UHGV virus genome: UHGV-0108392
DNA: 26,514 nt
Reading direction: 5' to 3' (one strand)
Origin: a virus
This document shows positions 4,483 through 16,996 of the stretch, piece by piece; within the stretch, counting starts at the first letter, position 1; each line of letters starts with the position of its first letter. The position numbers were made by a program, and so were the translations under genes. Below the pieces are notes generated by a model, which was given only the letters and a program-made list of their open reading frames with translations, ran no database searches and was not told the DNA's origin.

Positions 4483-4573
4483 GTTACCTCGGTCTGTTAC
4501 CGTTGAGGTAATAATTATGCGTATTTGGTTTGATGTCAATAGATATGAGTTAAGAAAATTACCTATTAGGTAA
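4483..4573 (-). promoter_or_regulatory. Leftward early promoter region (pL-like) with flanking operator palindromes
   Basis: Minus strand carries a perfect TTGACA -35 followed by an AT-rich -10 region (CATAATTAT). It is flanked by the perfect palindrome TTACCTATTAGGTAA (4559-4573) and by inverted arms TTACCTC...GAGGTAA (4483-4510) overlapping the RBS of the first ORF. Confidence 0.45.
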
Positions 4574-4590
4574 CAGTATAGGCAATAAAA

Positions 4591-4630: not shown

Positions 4631-5215
4631 TTATTGTTTGTTTTTTTCGTTCTGGTTGATGACAAATTCAATGTAACTTTCGATCTTTGCTTTCTCGGTT
4701 TCGGGTAACAATGCGTAGCGCGAGCGGTCATAGTTGATGGTCGCAGGGTCGTGCGGGTGAATCAGTAATTCATAGCCGTGACGCCCGAATGCGGATGCAA
4801 CATTCTCCAGGGTGGAAATGGAAACGCTGACCTCATTGTTTAACAGGCGGCTGATTGTCACCTGGGCGACGCCGGATGCGCGGTGAAGTTTTCCCTGAGT
4901 TGAAAGGTCGCGGCTTTCGCTCATCCAGCGTTCCAGGTTGTGAGCCGCCAGCTGACCAATGTCGCTTGGGCCGACAGGCTGAAAACCTTCCTGAGAAAGC
5001 GAGCGATCGATATCAAGCCAGTTACGTGGTTTATTGGCGGCAGCTTCAATTTTTCGCGCAACCTGGTCGCCGATAACCTTCTTGCCAAGAGCCCAGCGGT
5101 TTACCAGATTTGCCTGAGTTCCAAGTTTTTCTGCCATCCGCGTCTGAACACCATTGAATTCACGGTCGATCAAGTCGTTGAGATTTTGCCTGCGGACGTC
5201 CTGGATACTTTTCAT
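4631..5215 (-). CDS. Prophage repressor, two HTH-like segments (XRE/CI type), no S24 peptidase domain
   Basis: N-terminal segment (QTRMAEKLGTQANLVNRWALGKKVIGDQVARKIEAAANKPRNWLD) matches the CI-repressor HTH pattern; a second HTH-like segment lies in the C-terminal half. Divergent from a cro-like gene across an operator-rich intergenic region. Confidence 0.6.
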   Translation of the reverse strand: MKSIQDVRRQNLNDLIDREFNGVQTRMAEKLGTQANLVNRWALGKKVIGDQVARKIEAAANKPRNWLDIDRSLSQEGFQPVGPSDIGQLAAHNLERWMSESRDLSTQGKLHRASGVAQVTISRLLNNEVSVSISTLENVASAFGRHGYELLIHPHDPATINYDRSRYALLPETEKAKIESYIEFVINQNEKNKQ

Positions 5216-5369
5216 TTTCTGGAAAATCGCCTCATATATGAATCAGTAGATGATTCAATTTAAAGCAATATTACCCAACAGGTAAATGCACCTCATGGGT
5301 AACTATCCTTGATTTTTGTTACCTTATGGGTGAATATTTATTATCTGAAATAAATATCAGGCAATAGCT
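5216..5369. promoter_or_regulatory. Divergent promoter/operator switch region between repressor and cro-like gene
   Basis: Three operator-like sites related to TTACCT-N3-AGGTAA at 5271-5285, 5288-5302 and 5319-5333. A rightward promoter candidate (TTGATT at 5309-5314, -10 near 5332-5338) has the third operator inside its spacer. Confidence 0.55.
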
Positions 5370-5600: not shown

Positions 5601-5750
5601 TATCCAGCCACAACCCTCTGTAGACCGCCATCCGGCGGTCTTTTCATATCTATTCGTACCTCAAAGGTAATAAAAAACCAAATATGGTTGATCTTTTTTT
5701 TGTGTCAGCACAAAATAACCGTAATCCCAATACTAATAACAGGGCTTACC

Positions 5751-7564: not shown

Positions 7565-7602
7565 TACCAGCGCGATAGCGCATTTTTTTACGCCTCAATG
7601 AT

Positions 7603-7678
7603 TACCTATCAGGTAACAAAATATTCTAAACTCTATTGATTTCGTGTCTTATGTGGTTTTTAATTACCTAAGAGGTAA
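7603..7678 (+). promoter_or_regulatory. Promoter with two operator palindromes upstream of the nin-like gene cluster
   Basis: TTGATT (7636-7641), 17-bp spacer, TTTAAT (7659-7664). Perfect palindromes TTACCTATCAGGTAA (7603-7617) and TTACCTAAGAGGTAA (7664-7678) flank and overlap the -10/RBS. Confidence 0.5.
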
Positions 7679-7681
7679 ATC

Positions 7682-9285: not shown

Positions 9286-9651
9286 ATGGCACTGACGAAA
9301 AAACAACGTGCAGAGCTGCGCATGAAGTTCGGCGGTCGCTGTGCTTATTGCGGCTGCGAACTTGGCGAAAAGTGGCATGCAGACCATGTAAAACCGGTCA
9401 TTCGTTTTGCTGGAAATATGCTTCACCAGGAACGTGACGATATATCCAACATGGTTCCGGCATGCCACCCATGCAATCTGCACAAGCATTGCAGCAGCCT
9501 GGAAGATTATCGGCGAATTATCAGTGATGGTCGTCGTGAATTCCTTGCGTCCGGGAAAGGCAAAGCGCTGGTTCGTATGGGATTGGTTGAAATGAAATCT
9601 GACCCGATTGTGTTCTGGTTTGAAAAATATCAAGAAGGGGCTACGGCATGA
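9286..9651 (+). CDS. HNH endonuclease
   Basis: CAYCGCEL...HADHVKP...PACHPCNLHK: HNH motif with paired Cys zinc ligands. Confidence 0.75.
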   Translation: MALTKKQRAELRMKFGGRCAYCGCELGEKWHADHVKPVIRFAGNMLHQERDDISNMVPACHPCNLHKHCSSLEDYRRIISDGRREFLASGKGKALVRMGLVEMKSDPIVFWFEKYQEGATA

Positions 9652-10037
9652 CCACTATTACCAGAGAAAACGCGGAAATTAAATCATTCATCACTGGTTT
9701 CCTGAGCGACCCGGCGCACGATAACCAATCTTCAAACAGCCTGCTTGCCAATGTGTTTCGTATTGCACTGGTATCGCTGGAAGCAAAACCAATAGGTGCA
9801 TTTCACATTGCAGAACAGCAAGTTGACGGCACAAGTGACTACATCAAGGATGGGGAGTGGCCTATTGATAATGGAATTATTGAGGTCTACGCCGCTCCAC
9901 CCGTTCCAGTAGTACCGGAAGAAAAACCAATGCCTAATCCTCTTAGCATGTACGCGGTTGATGCTGTTGCTGCTATTGCAGAGGTGAGAGGCTGGAACGC
10001 CTGCCGTGCCGCTATGCTTCAGGGAAAAGGAGAGTGA
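9648..10037 (+). CDS. Hypothetical protein; N-terminus paralogous to the next gene
   Basis: Starts MTTITRENAEIK; the next gene starts MTTITDKKQYP, and both are preceded by an identical 16-nt initiation cassette. Confidence 0.45.
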   Translation: MTTITRENAEIKSFITGFLSDPAHDNQSSNSLLANVFRIALVSLEAKPIGAFHIAEQQVDGTSDYIKDGEWPIDNGIIEVYAAPPVPVVPEEKPMPNPLSMYAVDAVAAIAEVRGWNACRAAMLQGKGE

Positions 10038-10038
10038 T

Positions 10039-10611
10039 ATGACCACTATAACCGATAAGAAACAGTATCCCAGCGATCAATATCTTAATGAGCTGATCAC
10101 CAACATGGAGTTTGCTGCAAGGGCACCAGTTGAAGTCGTGAGAGTGATGGCAGCAGAGCTACAGAAGCGGCGCGAAGCTGATAGTGCAGAACCTGTAAGC
10201 CAAACTTACAACTTGCCACAAACGCACTTTGAACAGGTTGCTGACCTTTACGAAATGCAATTTGAGGATGGACGCACTTGTGCCTTTCATACTGATGCGA
10301 AAAAGGCTGCGCAATGGCTTCAGTCATGTGACGGAAACAGGGTTCAGGAATATGTGAAGCTGGAGCGGTTGCAGAACGCGCTGTCTGGCAACTCTCCGGT
10401 AACTCAGGATGGCTGGATAAGCTGTAGTGAGCGAATGCCAAACGAAGAAGATGTTTTGGTTTATTGCTCAGACACAAAAGAGCAGATGGTAGGGTTTCAC
10501 AAAGGTAAAGGGTTATTTCAATTCTTTTACATGAATGGTGTTGAGGGGGTATGTGAGCCGTCACACTGGATGCCACTACCAGAACCGCCGCAGGAGGTTA
10601 ACCGTGGCTAA
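10039..10611 (+). CDS. DUF551-like phage protein
   Basis: C-terminal DGWISCSERMPNEEDVLVY...HWMPLPEPP pattern recalled for the DUF551 phage domain; AAGGAGAG RBS before the ATG at 10039. Confidence 0.5.
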   Translation: MTTITDKKQYPSDQYLNELITNMEFAARAPVEVVRVMAAELQKRREADSAEPVSQTYNLPQTHFEQVADLYEMQFEDGRTCAFHTDAKKAAQWLQSCDGNRVQEYVKLERLQNALSGNSPVTQDGWISCSERMPNEEDVLVYCSDTKEQMVGFHKGKGLFQFFYMNGVEGVCEPSHWMPLPEPPQEVNRG

Positions 10612-10885
10612 CCTGCAACTTGCCGTCAAAGGTGAATATTTCGACCAGATGAAGTCAGGCGAGAAAACGGAAGAGTATCGCCTGTGTAATGACTACTGGA
10701 ATAAGCGAATTATGTTCCGGGAGTATGACCGCCTGATTATCACAAAGGGATATCCGAAGCGCGACGATTCCTGCCGCAGAATTGACGTCCCGTATGACGG
10801 ATATGAAATCAAGACAATCACACATCCGCACTTCGGTGATAAACCGGTAAAGGTGTTCGCGATAAAGGTAAATATTGATGGCTAA
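10604..10885 (+). CDS. ASCH/DUF3850-like small protein
   Basis: GEYFDQMKSGEKTEEYRLCND...REYD pattern resembling ASCH-fold proteins; GTG start at 10604 preceded by CAGGAGG. Confidence 0.45.
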   Translation: MANLQLAVKGEYFDQMKSGEKTEEYRLCNDYWNKRIMFREYDRLIITKGYPKRDDSCRRIDVPYDGYEIKTITHPHFGDKPVKVFAIKVNIDG

Positions 10886-11216
10886 ATCAGCAGCAGAGCG
10901 CAAAGCCGCTCAGAGAGCCAGACAAGCTGCATCTGGTGTGCGTAAGCTGGAGATTGTGCTTGATGCTCAGGAAATTGAAATGCTGGAGCGTAACTGTGCC
11001 ACACGTCGCCCCGGGCGTGCGCCTTACGAATTTGGTGAGTATATAGCGTTACTGATCTGCCAGGATGATGCACGCGTGCGCGGGCGTATAAAATCGATCA
11101 GCAGAAAACGTTGCGGTAAGTGCGGCGAGAGAGTTCCTGTGAATTCATGCCCGTGTAATGGTGACTCGCAATGCTGGGTGACTAAAGGCTGGCATGAAAC
11201 GAAATTAATAGTGTGA
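10878..11216 (+). CDS. Hypothetical Cys-rich protein (CGKCG...CPCNGDSQC)
   Basis: ORF overlapping the upstream stop; basic N-terminus and a Cys cluster suggest a zinc-binding, possibly DNA-binding protein. Sits where a late regulator might be expected, but there is no direct evidence for that role. Confidence 0.45.
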   Translation: MAKSAAERKAAQRARQAASGVRKLEIVLDAQEIEMLERNCATRRPGRAPYEFGEYIALLICQDDARVRGRIKSISRKRCGKCGERVPVNSCPCNGDSQCWVTKGWHETKLIV

Positions 11217-11233
11217 CATGTCACGAAGGTGTT

Positions 11234-11446
11234 ATGCCAAAAATACGCTACGACCTTGAAGATATGAGAGATAACTCAGCAAATTTTCCGAAAGAGGTTA
11301 AATTTCTCATGCATAAGTATGGTTGCGCCAGGAGGGATATAGTTATCGACAGTCAGCACCCTTGCGGCGAGGATGTAATTTTCATTCGCGGTAAATGGGA
11401 AGGGTATCTTGACGAGAGTTTTTACGATGAATTTGATGGACTTTGA
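11234..11446 (+). CDS. Hypothetical small protein
   Basis: ATG at 11234 with AAGGTG RBS; the track's 11213 start lies inside the GTGACATGTCAC palindrome. Confidence 0.4.
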   Translation: MPKIRYDLEDMRDNSANFPKEVKFLMHKYGCARRDIVIDSQHPCGEDVIFIRGKWEGYLDESFYDEFDGL

Positions 11447-11520
11447 ATACTGCCGCCAACTATGGCGGCTTTATTTTGCATGGTACTATTACCACAACGG
11501 TAACTATTACCAAGGTGGTT

Positions 11521-12117
11521 ATGATGCCTGCTGAACCTAAAACCTATAAACGCAAATCAACGCAATTTAAGCCACTAACAGCAATGCAGGAGGCTTATTG
11601 CCAGTCATACATCAAAACGCCTGAAAACCAGACTCAGGCAGCGATTAACGCAGGATTCTCCCCAAATACAGCGGCAGTTAAAGCCAGTGTCATGATGCGC
11701 GATGAACGCATTCAAAAACGGATTGCCGAGTTGATGGAGGAGCGCAACAAACGAATGCGCGTCAGTGCTGATTACGTTCTCATGCGCCTGGTGGAGATCG
11801 ACCAGATGGACGTGATCGACATCCTCAACGACGATGGGAGCCTTAAACCAATCCGTGAGTGGCCGAAAATCTGGCGCACTACGCTTAGTGGCTTTGATCT
11901 GTCATCGACCATCATGAACATGAACGAGGATTCGATAGAGACAATCCTCAAAAAAATTAAATGGCCTGACAAGGTGAAGAACCTTGAGCTGATTGGTAAG
12001 CATGTTGATGTCAACGCGTTCAAAGAACGTCTGGATGTTAATGTGAATGTGACAATTGCTGATCGCATAGCAGCAGCCAGGAAGCGACTCAAAGAACGTC
12101 AGGATGGTAATCAGTGA
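11521..12117 (+). CDS. Terminase small subunit
   Basis: Immediately upstream of, and overlapping (GTGA), the large terminase gene; N-terminal region (QEAYCQSYIKTPENQTQAAINAGFSPNTAAVKASVMMRDERIQKRI) resembles terminase small-subunit HTH domains. The true start is probably ATG 11521 (AAGGTGG RBS) rather than the track's 11443. Confidence 0.6.
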   Translation: MMPAEPKTYKRKSTQFKPLTAMQEAYCQSYIKTPENQTQAAINAGFSPNTAAVKASVMMRDERIQKRIAELMEERNKRMRVSADYVLMRLVEIDQMDVIDILNDDGSLKPIREWPKIWRTTLSGFDLSSTIMNMNEDSIETILKKIKWPDKVKNLELIGKHVDVNAFKERLDVNVNVTIADRIAAARKRLKERQDGNQ

Positions 12118-13589
12118 CAGATACAGCGTTATCTCCTGAAGAGCAGTTGATCGAGGATATTGCAGGGTTCACTCACGATCCGCTTGGTTATGCCCTCTAT
12201 GCGTTCCCGTGGGGGGAAGAGGGGACTGAACTGGCACATGCCACCGGTCCACGTCAGTGGCAGGCCGATGCGTTCCGAGAGATACGTGATCACCTGCAGA
12301 ATCCAGAGACGCGCTATCAGCCGCTTATGCTGGCACGCGCTTCTGGTCACGGTATTGGTAAATCCGCATTCATCTCAATGCTGATCAACTGGGGCATGTC
12401 CACTTGCGAGGATTGTAAGGTCGTGGTGACCGCCAACACCGACAACCAGCTACGAACGAAGACTTGGCCGGAAATTATCAAGTGGTCGAACCTTGCTATC
12501 ACGAAAGACTGGTTTACCTGTACCGCTACCGCGATGTACAGCAATGATCCTGGGCACGACAAGCGGTGGCGAGCTGACGCAATCCCCTGGTCTGAGCACA
12601 ACACTGAGGCATTCGCCGGACTACACAACGAGCGCAAACGCATCATCGTGGTATTCGATGAAGCGTCGAACATTGCGGATCTGGTGTGGGAAGTTGCCGA
12701 GGGTGCGCTAACGGACGAAGACACTGAGATTATCTGGGTGGCGTTCGGAAACCCGACGCGTAATACCGGACGTTTCCGCGAATGTTTCCGCAAATATAAA
12801 CACCGCTGGAAAACTGCGCAGATTGACAGCCGGACGGTGGAAGGCACTAACAAACAGCAGTTGCAGAAATGGGTTGATGACTACGGGGAAGACAGCGACT
12901 TCGTTAAAATCCGTGTGCGCGGCATATTCCCGGATGCATCTGAATTGCAGTTTATCCCTACCGGACTTACTGACGAGGCAATGAAACGGGTGGTCACCGC
13001 TGCGCAGGTTGCACATGCTCCGGTGATAATCGGCGTTGACCCGGCATACTCAGGCGTTGATGATGCGGTGATATACCTGCGGCAGGGGCTGCACAGTAAG
13101 GTGCTGTGGACCGGCAACAAGACCACTGACGATCTGATTATGGCAAAGCGTATCGCTGACTTTGAAGACCAGTATCAGGCTGACGCGGTGTTCATCGACT
13201 TCGGTTACGGAACTGGTCTGAAGTCAATCGGTGACGGCTGGGGTCGTACATGGCAACTTGTTCCGTTCGGTGGCGCGTCTACTGACCCGCAGATGCTCAA
13301 TAAGCGCGGGGAGATGTTCAACTCATGCAAGACGTGGCTGAGGCTGGGCGGCATGCTTGATGACCAGGAAACAGCGGACGACCTGTCGGCGGCAGAGTAC
13401 AAAGTTCGAGTGGACGGTAAAATCGTTATCGAACCGAAGGAAGATATCAAGGAGCGGCTTGGGCGTTCTCCTGGTAAAGGCGATGCGCTACTGCTGACGT
13501 TTGCGTTCCCTGTGTCGAAGCGTCTGCGAATTCCCGGGCAGCAGAACCAGCAAGGCAAGGCCATCACAGATTACGATCCATATGCTTAA
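12114..13589 (+). CDS. Terminase large subunit
   Basis: Walker A-like ARASGHGIGKS, Walker B-like VVFDEASN, C-terminal nuclease-type region; 491 aa. Confidence 0.85.
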   Translation: MTDTALSPEEQLIEDIAGFTHDPLGYALYAFPWGEEGTELAHATGPRQWQADAFREIRDHLQNPETRYQPLMLARASGHGIGKSAFISMLINWGMSTCEDCKVVVTANTDNQLRTKTWPEIIKWSNLAITKDWFTCTATAMYSNDPGHDKRWRADAIPWSEHNTEAFAGLHNERKRIIVVFDEASNIADLVWEVAEGALTDEDTEIIWVAFGNPTRNTGRFRECFRKYKHRWKTAQIDSRTVEGTNKQQLQKWVDDYGEDSDFVKIRVRGIFPDASELQFIPTGLTDEAMKRVVTAAQVAHAPVIIGVDPAYSGVDDAVIYLRQGLHSKVLWTGNKTTDDLIMAKRIADFEDQYQADAVFIDFGYGTGLKSIGDGWGRTWQLVPFGGASTDPQMLNKRGEMFNSCKTWLRLGGMLDDQETADDLSAAEYKVRVDGKIVIEPKEDIKERLGRSPGKGDALLLTFAFPVSKRLRIPGQQNQQGKAITDYDPYA

Positions 13590-13639
13590 TCCGCTGGTGG
13601 GGATAATGTCGTTGATATCCTCTGATGAGGATAAAACAA

Positions 13640-13659
13640 AGCCAGCTCATCGGCTGGCT
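13640..13659. terminator. Putative bidirectional terminator hairpin between large terminase and the convergent moron gene
   Basis: AGCCAGC-TCATCG-GCTGGCT hairpin with A/T-rich flanks on both sides. Confidence 0.4.
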
Positions 13660-13679
13660 GTTTGTGACATGTCACGGTG

Positions 13680-14099
13680 TTACTTAATGGCATTAAATCC
13701 AGCGTTGATGGCTTCCGCAATATTGATGGCACTTGTTTTATCGAAGTGCCCATTCTGAATAAGCGCCGCATGCAGGCATTGTAACTTCATGTTGTATAAG
13801 TGTTCGCTCATGTAATCATGATCACTTTTTGCTTTAGCGTAAACAGCGCGAGAAATATCAAACATATCGCCTTTTTCCATTTCAGAACGTTGTGCTGTTA
13901 TCCAGTCATGGAACGTAACGCTAGTACCATGGTCTTCGCTAAGAGTTAACCCGGCCAGTCCCTCACTCTGAATTACTTCGTAATGCATTTCATTACCAGC
14001 AAAAACGCCATAAAAAACGCAGTCTTCAGCCTGAACGATACGAGAATATTTTAATGGCCATTCATTTAGATACTTAGCCAACATATCAATTGTCTTCAT
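13680..14099 (-). CDS. Hypothetical protein (139 aa), opposite-strand moron gene downstream of the tRNA
   Basis: Good RBS (AAGGTGAG), opposite orientation to the flanking packaging and structural genes, no recognisable domain. Confidence 0.5.
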   Translation of the reverse strand: MKTIDMLAKYLNEWPLKYSRIVQAEDCVFYGVFAGNEMHYEVIQSEGLAGLTLSEDHGTSVTFHDWITAQRSEMEKGDMFDISRAVYAKAKSDHDYMSEHLYNMKLQCLHAALIQNGHFDKTSAINIAEAINAGFNAIK

Positions 14100-14298
14100 A
14101 ATCTCACCTTAAAAAAATGCCCGGACGAACCGGGCGAACTGGAAGCAATGAGTTCTGCCTTCCGTGGCTGTACTGGTTTACAGCATGAAGTCATCGCAAT
14201 GGCGTCCTGCTGTAAAAAGGGCGGTGATAGTCCTTCAAGGGAAACCATCACCGCCAAGCACCTGGAACTTCTGGCATCACGGTCCTTAGGCGTGATTC

Positions 14299-14375
14299 TG
14301 GCGTGGCATGCAGGATTCGAACCTGCGACCAACCGCTTAGAAGGCGGTTGCTCTGTCCAACTGAGCTAATGCCAC
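14299..14375 (-). tRNA. tRNA-Arg (anticodon UCU), phage-encoded, CCA encoded
   Basis: Reverse complement folds by hand as a 77-nt cloverleaf: acceptor GTGGCAT/ATGCCAC, D-stem GCTC/GAGC, anticodon stem ACCGC/GCGGT with loop CTTCTAA, T-stem GCAGG/CCTGC with loop TTCGAAT, then G-CCA. Stem sequences differ from E. coli argU as recalled. Confidence 0.9.
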
Positions 14376-14697
14376 AACGCTGAGAGCACTTAGCCTGTTA
14401 AGGCGCCACACTTTGTCGCGGCTCCATAAATGCTCTCATCGTTGTACCCTCGTCTCTTCCGAGGCGTCACACCGAATCGCCGGGATGGTGAATCCCCGTG
14501 CGCGGAATAAAACCGCTCGACTTGCACATTCCGGCTACCTGGTTCGTTTGCCCGAGCAAGGGAGGGTGCCCCTTAAACGTATCCAGACCGCTATCGGCGC
14601 ATGTGCCATACGCCGTACTGCTCAAAATAAAAGCTCACTCCACCTGTTCAATTTAACGACAAGCCAGTCATGTTAGTAACCGGAATGAACTCTTTGG

Positions 14698-14712
14698 TTA
14701 CCTCAAAGGTAA
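14698..14712. promoter_or_regulatory. Perfect operator palindrome TTACCTCAAAGGTAA upstream of the structural-gene module
   Basis: Same 15-bp palindrome as at the early promoters; a perfect TTGACA lies on the minus strand at 14734-14729 next to it. Confidence 0.4.
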
Positions 14713-14802
14713 TAATTCGCGCATTAAATGTCAACTGCCTACGATAAATAAATCATATGTGGTTAAATTGGTAATAATTTAATTGCGTACGGAGTCATTG
14801 AT

Positions 14803-15009
14803 ATGTGCATGGGTAGCTCACCATCAGTGCCTGCAACACCAGAAGTTCAGGCAGCACCACAGGAGCAGGATGCCGCCGTTGTTGATGCCCGCGACGAAGA
14901 AACTCGTCGCCGTCGCGCTGCTGCTAGTCGTAGTTCTACGCTGCTTACCGGTTCTCAGGGCGACACATCAACCGCTAAGACCAGCGGTAAAACGCTGCTT
15001 GGTCAGTAA
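14803..15009 (+). CDS. Hypothetical small Ala/Arg-rich protein preceding the portal gene
   Basis: ATG with a GGAG RBS; its initiation region CGGAGTCATTGA-ATG is near-identical to that of the portal gene. Confidence 0.4.
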   Translation: MCMGSSPSVPATPEVQAAPQEQDAAVVDARDEETRRRRAAASRSSTLLTGSQGDTSTAKTSGKTLLGQ

Positions 15010-15023
15010 CCGGAGTCATTGAA

Positions 15024-16703
15024 ATGGCGGAAACAACTAAAGAGCGATTGAACAAACAGTTCGCACAACTTGAAAGCGAGCGTCAGTCGTTCGAGCCGCA
15101 CTGGCGCGAGTTGAGTGATTACATCAACCCACGTGGTTCCCGCTTTCTGACTTCTGAGGTCAACCGTAACGATCGACGCAATACACGCATTATTGATTCG
15201 ACCGGGACTATGGCGGCGCGCACTCTCGCCAGCGGCATGATGTCAGGCATCACAAGCCCCGCGCGTCCGTGGTTTCGCCTGGCTACGCCAGATCCTGAAA
15301 TGATGGATTATGGCCCTGTTAAGTTGTGGCTTGAGGCGGTGCAGAACCGCATGAACGATATGTTCAATAAGTCGAATCTCTACCAGTCTCTTCCGCAGTT
15401 ATACGGAAGCCTCGGCACATACAGCACCGGTGCAATGGCGGTACTGGAGGATGACGAGGACATCATTCGCACAATGCCATTCCCGATAGGCAGTTACTAC
15501 CTGGCTAACTCACCTCGTGGCAGTGTGGACACCTGTTTTCGCAAGTTCTCTATGACCGTTCGTCAGCTTGTTCAGGAGTTCGGGCTAAATAACGTCAGCG
15601 AATCCGTAAAAAGCATGTGGGAAAGCGGCACCTACGAGAAGTGGATTGAAGTGATGCATTCGGTTTACCCGAACATTGACCGCGATACATCGAAGCTGGA
15701 TAGCAAGAACAAGCCATTCAAATCGGTTTATTACGAGGTTGGCGGTGATAACGACAAGTTGTTGCGTGAGTCCGGATTCGATGAGTTTCCAATTATGGCT
15801 CCGCGCTGGGAAGTTAATGGCGAAGATGTTTATGGATCATCATGCCCGGGTATGCTGGCGCTTGGACCTGTTAAGGCATTGCAGCTTCTCCAGAAGCGCA
15901 AGTCGCAGTTGATTGATAAAGCCACCAATCCGCCGATGGTTGCTCCGACTTCCCTCAAGAATCAGCGCGCCTCCCTTCTTCCTGGCGACATCACGTATAT
16001 CGATCAGATTACTGGTCAGGATGGATTCAGGCCTGCTTATCTGGTTAACCCCAGTACAGCAGATTTGGTGGCAGACATTCAGGACACTCGTCAAATCATT
16101 AACAGCGCCTACTTTGTCGATCTGTTCATGATGTTGCAGAACATCAATACCCGCTCGATGCCTGTTGAAGCGGTGATCGAAATGAAAGAAGAAAAACTTC
16201 TGATGTTGGGGCCGGTTCTGGAGCGTCTGAACGACGAATGTCTTAATCCTCTCATTGACCGCGCTTTCTCGATGATGGTGCGTAAAAACATGCTGCCGCC
16301 ACCGCCTGACGCGATGGAAGGCATGCCCCTGAAGGTCGAATACATTTCCGTCATGGCTCAGGCGCAGAAGTCTATCGGCCTGTCCAGTCTGGCGTCCACG
16401 GTTAACTTCATTGGTCAACTTGCGCAAGCGAAACCAGAAGCTCTCGACAAACTCAACGTTGATCAGGCGATCGATGCATTCGCTGATATGTCCGGAGTGT
16501 CTCCAACCGTCATTGTTCCGCAGGAACAGGTTGAGCAGGCTCGCCAGCAACGGGCACAGCAGCAACAGCAGCAACAAATGATGGCGATGGGGATGGCGGC
16601 GGCACAGGGTGTCAAGACGCTAAGTGAAGCTAAAACTTCGGATCCGAGTGTGTTGTCAGCTATGGCGAATGCAGTTAGTGGTCAGGGTGGGCAATCACAA
16701 TGA
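15024..16703 (+). CDS. Portal / head-to-tail connector protein (T7 gp8-like)
   Basis: 559 aa; Gln-rich C-terminus (QQQQQQMMAMGMAAAQG) resembles the T7 gp8 C-terminus as recalled; positioned after terminase and before scaffold and capsid. Confidence 0.75.
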   Translation: MAETTKERLNKQFAQLESERQSFEPHWRELSDYINPRGSRFLTSEVNRNDRRNTRIIDSTGTMAARTLASGMMSGITSPARPWFRLATPDPEMMDYGPVKLWLEAVQNRMNDMFNKSNLYQSLPQLYGSLGTYSTGAMAVLEDDEDIIRTMPFPIGSYYLANSPRGSVDTCFRKFSMTVRQLVQEFGLNNVSESVKSMWESGTYEKWIEVMHSVYPNIDRDTSKLDSKNKPFKSVYYEVGGDNDKLLRESGFDEFPIMAPRWEVNGEDVYGSSCPGMLALGPVKALQLLQKRKSQLIDKATNPPMVAPTSLKNQRASLLPGDITYIDQITGQDGFRPAYLVNPSTADLVADIQDTRQIINSAYFVDLFMMLQNINTRSMPVEAVIEMKEEKLLMLGPVLERLNDECLNPLIDRAFSMMVRKNMLPPPPDAMEGMPLKVEYISVMAQAQKSIGLSSLASTVNFIGQLAQAKPEALDKLNVDQAIDAFADMSGVSPTVIVPQEQVEQARQQRAQQQQQQQMMAMGMAAAQGVKTLSEAKTSDPSVLSAMANAVSGQGGQSQ

Positions 16704-16996
16704 CAGATTACGAAGACGATCAACTGAAAGAAGAAAACGCCCGTAAGCAACGTGACATGGCACAGCGTGAAATTGATGACATTCGCTTTGTCATGAGCAG
16801 TGAACAGGGGCGTCGCGTTGTCTGGTCGGTGCTGGAGAAAGGCCGTGTGTTTTCCGCTATCTCTCCGATGGATGCTATGGCAATGGCATTTAATGAGGGG
16901 CAACGCAATCTGGCGCTGGAACTGTTTCAGCGCGTTATGGCGCATTGCCCTGAACAGTATTTGAAGATGGCCAAAGAGGCCAGTGAACAGGAGTGA
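16700..16996 (+). CDS. Hypothetical protein (98 aa)
   Basis: ATG overlapping the portal stop (ATGA); acidic; no known motif. Confidence 0.45.
   Translation: MTDYEDDQLKEENARKQRDMAQREIDDIRFVMSSEQGRRVVWSVLEKGRVFSAISPMDAMAMAFNEGQRNLALELFQRVMAHCPEQYLKMAKEASEQE

Follow-up and report, generated by a model that had tools for sequence, protein, structure and literature searches.

Why does an identical palindrome stand on either side of the terminase genes in a phage genome? We address this question for UHGV virus genome UHGV-0108392, of which one stretch of 26,514 nucleotides (the window) was analysed. A first reading of the window had located two copies of the 14-bp sequence TGTGACATGTCACG around the genes for the small and large terminase subunits (terS and terL), and had proposed that they could be regulator binding sites, packaging-recognition elements or recombination boundaries of an exchangeable packaging module. 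We find the motif in phages of very different kinds, together with a family of small proteins whose gene ends on the motif, the gp49 / N15 gp46 family (phrog_536). This supports the first of the three proposals and makes it specific: the palindrome is probably the cognate operator of the adjacent gp49-family protein, a putative ribbon-helix-helix (RHH) protein with a four-cysteine (Cys4) cluster.

Two identical palindromes in an epsilon15-like phage

The first copy, site (a), lies at 11212-11225 as originally stated, and the second, site (b), is identical in sequence but occupies 13663-13676, one base lower than the 13664-13677 first given. The core GTGACATGTCAC is indeed a perfect 12-bp palindrome (11213-11224 and 13664-13675). 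The approximate distances to the terminase genes, 300 bp upstream of terS and 75 bp downstream of terL, measure 296 bp to the terS ATG at 11521 and 74 bp past the terL stop codon. By arithmetic, the chance expectation of one exact 12-mer in 26.5 kb is ∼0.0016, and core matches with up to two mismatches number 5 in the window versus 1.3 expected, a count reached by 0 of 100 shuffles. The palindrome is far beyond chance. A sigma-70 promoter scan returned no promoter at either window site. The ribosome-binding site and ATG of an open reading frame (ORF) of 70 amino acids come directly after site (a).

A megablast search assigns the window to an epsilon15/phiV10-like temperate podophage (Uetakevirus), with 95-98% identity to PAS61, HEMP4, ZX5, phiV10 and TL-2011b and ∼80% identity to Salmonella phage epsilon15 and Enterobacter phage Tyrion. 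Three exact copies of the 12-mer GTGACATGTCAC are present in each of the complete genomes of PAS61, epsilon15 and Tyrion; in phiV10 two copies are exact and the third, at site (a), has one mismatch. The three places are constant: (a) over the stop codon with which the gp49-like gene ends, (b) by the terminator that follows terL and (c) directly before the terminator closing the long structural operon, which is expected ∼17 kb downstream of (b), beyond the end of the window. These positions are kept despite an identity of only ∼80% to epsilon15 around the sites. Among 93 epsilon15-like loci, site (a) is exact in ∼82 of 86 anchored cases and site (b) in ∼50, with a few single-base variants. Site (b) is also kept in epsilon15-like prophages of Citrobacter, Klebsiella, Scandinavium and others, at +2.2 to +3.2 kb from the gene, and the 12-mer recurs in dozens of other phages and prophages.

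Three further observations concern the motif in these phages. The heptamer GGTGTTA trails both window copies (11226-11232 and 13677-13682, with a 2-nt AA indel at site (a)); as RNA it could pair with the left half of the palindrome, and at site (b) its TTA is a reverse-strand stop codon. It is probably not functional, because it is absent after site (a) in phiV10 and PAS61. A one-mismatch copy, GTGACATGGCAC, at 16752-16763 inside ORF 16700-16996 is identical in phiV10 and PAS61; since only close relatives have it and epsilon15 lacks it, it is probably a chance match or a decayed site. In epsilon15 a two-mismatch copy, GTGACATGGCAT, overlaps the TGA stop of the Rz-like spanin gene that closes the lysis block (L003, 26618-26629), and may be a degenerate fourth site.

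The motif travels with the gp49 / N15 gp46 family

Homologues of the gp49-like protein exist outside Uetakevirus. Pectobacterium myovirus ZF40, whose protein is 65% identical, has three exact motif copies, located 3 nt past the stop codon of the gene, inside an early-left gene and inside a CII-like gene. N15 and phiKO2, with proteins ∼34-36% identical, contain three GTGAC-TG/CA-GTCAC copies each in orthologous places: on the TGA stop of gp46, inside repA and upstream of the anti-repressor operon.

In a census of 38 prophage loci from different species, including Citrobacter, Proteus, Yersinia and an alphaproteobacterium (710 kb), GTGAC-NN-GTCAC occurs 58 times and in 37 of the loci, compared with ∼0.7 occurrences expected. 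The remaining 1023 possible palindromes of the form 5-N2-5 average 0.8 in the same sequences, and the runner-up reaches 11. Half-sites GTGAC/GTCAC separated by 0, 1, 3, 4 or 5 bp were not found at all. The site lies on or directly after the gene's stop codon in 22 of the 38 loci (18 overlapping the TGA, 4 up to 12 nt downstream). Lambda and P2, used as controls, have neither the gene nor the motif (zero sites), and add little because the background rate is low. As the motif is shared across unrelated phages together with one adjacent gene, the palindromes are most likely sites of the protein it encodes rather than packaging signals.

Individual phages outside the epsilon15 group differ in what surrounds the site. 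Serratia and Symbiopectobacterium prophages (L099, ∼10349-10368; same position in L101 and L102) have a LexA-box-like TACTGT-N8-ACAGTA after the family gene, in place of the palindrome. P2-like Yersinia phages contain paired sites, GTGACATGGCAC-N21-GTGACATGTCAC (L006, 11675-11719; L115, ∼12636; L116, ∼14864), upstream of membrane-protein moron genes; in L115 the pair is ∼20 nt ahead of a TATAAT, a promoter-proximal arrangement unlike that in epsilon15-like phages. The N15 (L007, 28550-28561) and phiKO2 (L247, 31182-31193) sites in the leader of the icd/antA/antB anti-repressor operon are 4 nt from TAAAAT on the transcribed strand, and in epsilon15-like phages a convergent anti-repressor/Bro gene has its 3' end at site (c). 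The sites may be linked to anti-repressor control.

The candidate binding protein

The candidate protein (112 amino acids) belongs to a family that carries the phrog_536 label 'transcriptional regulator', with no Pfam or NCBIfam model. The family comprises 225 clusters at 50% identity among 1.84 billion representatives, mostly of 105-135 amino acids, and conserves two N-terminal arginines, Arg-43, Tyr-50, Glu-54 and four cysteines, the latter forming the Cys4 cluster (Cys-80, Cys-83, Cys-92 and Cys-100 in window numbering). The predicted model (113 residues) shows one N-terminal basic helix, an RHH-like core, a Cys4 loop and a short C-terminal helix. It is the second of two AlphaFold2 (AF2) models; the first, built from 19 sequences, had a predicted local distance difference test (pLDDT) score of 65 and was not used.

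A Foldseek search against BFVD returned only a fragment of the gp49 / N15 gp46 family itself, and a PDB sequence search with the family profile gave chance matches only. Domain scans detected no recombinase or nuclease motif in the gp49-like protein, and Pfam, NCBIfam and PADLOC scans of this protein and of the two accessory ORFs next to the sites gave no match. Full-text searches, including for the 12-mer and its variants, found no paper that describes the motif or what the protein does; the ZX5 paper is confined to repressor, anti-repressor and integrase.

The protein can be compared with known RHH repressors (P22 Arc and Mnt, CopG, ParG, omega and RHH antitoxins). The gp49 family differs from these by its conserved Cys4 module and N-terminal basic helix, and by the placement of its sites: instead of lying upstream of the family gene's promoter, they fall at its stop codon and, beside terminators, at the 3' ends of other genes.

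Sequence, symmetry and placement of the site

The flanks of the 12-mer are themselves symmetric: of 71 distinct sites, 70 have a pyrimidine at position -1 and 70 a purine at position +12. These two positions make the element a 14-bp dyad, Y-GTGAC-NN-GTCAC-R. In five very divergent prophages the exact 12-mer lies within a homologous early-left gene (phrog_2479), where it encodes Cys-Asp-Met-Ser with all synonymous positions fixed, which points to selection on the DNA sequence.

The two central bases vary with a motif at the predicted DNA-reading strand of the protein. The strand x-K-x-E goes with an AT centre (many loci; CT in two Pantoea loci), TTRRDW with TG (4 loci, all 9 sites) and INEIR with GC (5 loci), and sites far from the gene carry the same centre as the gene-adjacent site. 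This co-variation is suggestive, though spread over few independent clades. The asymmetric centre in N15 and phiKO2 has no constant orientation relative to transcription. Taken together, the features of the site suit a symmetric dimer that recognises the DNA duplex.

Most sites (50 of 76) fall between -15 and +60 nt from a gene stop codon, and only 7 of 76 are clearly within long ORFs. Wherever a terminator-like hairpin adjoins, the order is stop codon, site, hairpin, T-tract; at (b) and (c) the site is on the side of the hairpin without the T-tract, facing convergent transcription. Such placement could also be expected of an RNA-level element in the 3'-untranslated region, namely a small hairpin or a protein-bound RNA (possibly contacted via the Cys4 module) just upstream of terminator hairpins that would affect termination, antitermination or mRNA 3'-end stability. 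The constant position of abutting sites on the transcribed 5' side of the terminator and the prevalence of gene 3' ends speak for this alternative. The palindrome alone as RNA forms no significant hairpin and its pairing partners differ between contexts, so that the hairpin version is unsupported, and we regard an RNA-level role as improbable.

Homology breaks at the palindromes, but the terminase block is conserved

We mapped breakpoints by blastn of window positions 10400-14899 against the 93 epsilon15-like loci. Homology stops at 11226 in 54 loci and restarts at 11426 in 56, the gap corresponding to the 70-residue ORF; it stops again at 13682 in 39 loci and restarts at ∼14095 in 38, the gap corresponding to a reverse-strand ORF of 139 residues. 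The slot of the latter holds different ORFs in phiV10, PAS61, epsilon15 and Tyrion. The suggestion of recombination boundaries thus holds in part, as the breaks coincide exactly with the palindromes, but the block proposed to be exchanged does not behave as a module: 90 of 93 relatives keep terS-terL, the pair is not exchanged as one piece, and the variable parts are the small accessory ORFs.

The palindromes could accordingly be crossover points for accessory cassettes, used through short homology or site-specific cutting, with the gp49-like protein as an accessory factor or nuclease. The exact breaks at 11226 and 13682 and the joining of different ORFs at a fixed distance from site (b) are in line with this idea. 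An integron-like cassette would have sites at both ends and a recombinase, but the far cassette ends (11426 and ∼14095) contain no palindrome and the protein has no recombinase or nuclease motif. Moreover, many coincident breakpoints represent few shared ancestral events, and phiV10 and PAS61 retain an in-frame remnant of the 70-residue ORF, MHDEFDGL, which indicates a simple deletion and not a cassette swap. Some sites lie within conserved genes (repA, the CII-like gene, phrog_2479), and the terminase block between two sites is not exchanged. There is consequently little probability that the palindromes serve as recombination hot-spots.

Comparison with MatP-matS and SlmA

The half-sites of the palindrome are the same as those of the host chromosome-organising site matS, which is bound by MatP. 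MatS is GTGAC-RNY-GTCAC, 13 bp long, and is reported to be absent from prophages (PMC3603311). The phage core is 12 bp long with a strict 2-bp spacer, compared with 3 bp in matS; no 13-bp matS was found in any complete genome examined, and all 58 sites in the 710 kb have the 2-bp spacer. We detected no sequence homology between the proteins: hhalign of the family with E. coli MatP gave a probability of 0.1% (E = 0.44), and a phmmer search of MatP (sequence checked against 4d8j) against 298 family proteins gave a best E value of 0.21.

Dupaigne et al. reportedly described, in 2012, an N-terminal four-helix bundle and a C-terminal coiled coil in MatP. The phage protein model has neither and shares only the RHH part; the phage protein further differs in its length of ∼112 residues, its Cys4 cluster, its phage-encoded origin and a gene that ends on a site. 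As the half-sites are the same but spacing and architecture differ and homology is not detectable, the phage pair resembles MatP-matS and would work like an RHH-operator pair, but is not a member of the MatP family.

Could the palindrome instead be a site for a host factor, or a mimic of matS, bound by MatP or another GTGA-reading host protein, with the phage gene merely linked? The spacing is strictly 2 bp, and matS-like sites with a spacing of 3 are absent from the 710 kb. The centre follows the phage protein subfamily and not the host: the TG centre of N15 type, for instance, recurs in Escherichia, Klebsiella and Pseudocitrobacter and on an alphaproteobacterial contig. In addition, one site is retained on the stop codon of the phage gene over a range of 34-98% protein identity. 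We judge a host-factor site to be very improbable.

SlmA, a TetR-family host protein, has the site GTGAGTACTCAC. This site is likewise a 12-bp palindrome with outer GTGA...TCAC, but the inner four bases differ (CATG in the phage core, GTAC in the SlmA site). Nothing in the analysis, which included no test aimed at SlmA, ties this protein to the phage palindrome.

Packaging

Phage pac sites, such as those of P22, SPP1 and P1, are single loci, usually inside or beside terS. Epsilon15 is reported to be circularly permuted and hence a headful packager; the points at which the phiV10 and epsilon15 records begin reflect depositor convention. That the palindrome is a pac signal recognised by the small terminase, as its nearness to terS at site (a) and the bracketing of the terminase genes by the two window copies might suggest, has a close to negligible probability, because it is dispersed in three copies per genome, one of them ∼17 kb from the terminase genes, because the gene and motif pair (with a variant motif in N15 and phiKO2) is present in cos phages, namely N15, phiKO2 and P2-like Yersinia phages, and because in ZF40 the identical motif is in the early region, 9-19 kb from the terminase gene; the motif tracks the gp49-family gene and not the terminase type.

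Repressor operators at the starts of transcription blocks

The 9-bp direct repeat CTATTACCA had been listed as a separate feature just upstream of terS. It is present at the positions given (11486-11494 and 11504-11512), but turns out to consist of the left halves of a tandem pair of repressor operators of ATTACC-N5-GGTAAT form, ATTACCACAACGGTAAC and ATTACCAAGGTGGTTAT. With up to two mismatches, 9 such dyads occur in the window versus 0.62 expected. Several cluster at the repressor gene (4631-5215, minus strand), and others precede terS and the portal block (14697), so that the repeat belongs to an enriched dyad found at operon starts. The epsilon15 record annotates 'protein_bind repressor' sites of ATTACC-N4/5-GGTAAT form, one of them at 12-27 just before terS, and epsilon15/SPC32H-type prophage repressor operators have the same form as the pair at 11488-11522. 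Every late block appears to own an operator. The operators are a different element from the GTGAC palindrome: operators are found at the 5' ends of blocks and the palindrome at 3' ends.

Other features of the region

The gene order of the window is early-right operon, gp49-like gene, terminator, terS, terL, a reverse-strand accessory ORF, tRNA-Arg (minus strand), then portal and structural genes (Table 1). The hairpins at 11452-11469 and 13640-13660 are GC-rich, are followed by a T-run as in intrinsic terminators, and recur in relatives; the epsilon15 record annotates a stem-loop at 39646-39672 equivalent to the one at 11452-11477. ORFs called over tRNA-Arg (14096-14332 minus, 14148-14369 plus) are probably spurious. 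The early-right accessory region also contains an HNH endonuclease ORF (9286-9651; Pfam HNH, weak NinG), and a DUF551 ORF (10006-10611) and a phrog_625 ORF (10535-10885) are found upstream of the gp49-like gene.

Table 1. Features around the two palindromes, in window coordinates
Feature	Position	Strand	Remarks
Candidate binding protein, 112 aa, gp49 / N15 gp46 family (phrog_536)	10878..11216	+	ORF ending on site (a)
Site (a), 14-bp dyad T-GTGAC-AT-GTCAC-G	11212..11225	.	Covers TGA stop (11214-11216) of gp49-family gene
70-aa ORF, phrog_1541, function unassigned	11234..11446	+	Variable cassette beginning right after site (a); in 26/93 relatives
Intrinsic terminator, early-right operon / terS gap	11452..11477	+	GCCGCC-aact-atGGCGGC then TTTATTTT
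Two tandem repressor operators	11488..11522	.	11488-11504 and 11506-11522; second overlaps terS ribosome-binding site and start codon
terS (Terminase_2) and terL	11521..13589	+	Conserved block between both palindromes; present in 90/93 relatives
Terminator hairpin 3' of terL	13640..13660	.	T-tract good for minus strand (TTTGTTTTAT), poor for plus
Site (b), identical 14-bp dyad	13663..13676	.	3 nt from hairpin 13640-13660, 4 nt from stop codon of minus-strand ORF 13680-14099
139-aa ORF, phrog_4846, function unassigned	13680..14099	-	Variable moron-like cassette; stop codon 4 nt from site (b); in 16-19/93 relatives
tRNA-Arg, anticodon TCT	14299-14375	-	Between terminase and portal blocks
Nine operator-like dyads	4496-4512, 4558-4574, 5270-5286, 5655-5671, 7601-7617, 7663-7679, 11488-11504, 11506-11522, 14697-14713		

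Discussion

Our comparisons favor a model in which the duplex YGTGACATGTCACR would be the binding target of the gp49-family protein, contacted by an RHH dimer with a C-terminal Cys4 zinc module. Transcription blocks of epsilon15-like phages start with repressor operators, and every copy of the palindrome is found at a block 3' end, placed between stop codon and intrinsic terminator. The bound protein might control transcription over block boundaries as a roadblock or insulator, or, in an alternative form of this role, modulate termination and the read-through that reaches the next block or runs antisense into convergent accessory genes. We offer such a function at block boundaries tentatively, on the placement of the sites; that the protein binds the palindrome is the part of the model we consider probable.

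Several observations weigh against this interpretation. The assignment of the RHH fold rests on a medium-confidence AF2 monomer model, a Foldseek search of this model against the PDB found nothing, and no Pfam RHH model matches the protein. The co-variation of strand motif and site centre spans just three or four independent clades, so that it is confounded by phylogeny, and in the two Pantoea loci an AT-type strand accompanies a CT centre. No site is present at the gene's own stop codon in Serratia, Symbiopectobacterium and Proteus prophages or in the P2-like Yersinia loci (the Yersinia loci of GC type have one). Of 120 partial viral stretches holding the 14-mer TGTGACATGTCACA, 31 contain a family gene, a fraction in which the short stretches give low power. 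The contexts of the sites are mixed, comprising intergenic 3' ends, the CII-like gene, repA and places near a moron promoter, with no obvious common transcriptional mechanism; -10 and -35 elements sought by hand beside the sites gave nothing consistent, and no promoter-like element is regularly associated.

A wider reading, which we consider rather unlikely, is that the gene and its sites form an undescribed phage system, in which a MatP-like RHH/zinc family would act on matS-like sites one base pair shorter (YGTGAC-N2-GTCACR) at the gene's stop codon and at block 3' ends. The sites would be protein-dependent insulators or roadblocks, or DNA-bridging anchors organising the phage genome, with mosaic junctions clustering there, and the system may interact with or evade host MatP/Ter.

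For annotation, the analysis corrects two tempting misreadings of this locus, the palindromes as a pac site and the terminase genes as a swappable module. It offers a concrete, testable target for a widespread, unannotated phage protein family. It also provides a 14-bp landmark for the 3' ends of transcription blocks in the epsilon15-like group, and several phages of this group are in use or under study for E. coli O157 and Salmonella. For a regulator to have sites on the stop codon of its own gene and beside terminators is unusual, and could reveal a protein-dependent boundary or insulator mechanism in phage transcription. Half-sites identical to host matS at a different spacing provide an entry to how RHH proteins set spacing, and to whether phages avoid or imitate chromosome-organising sites.

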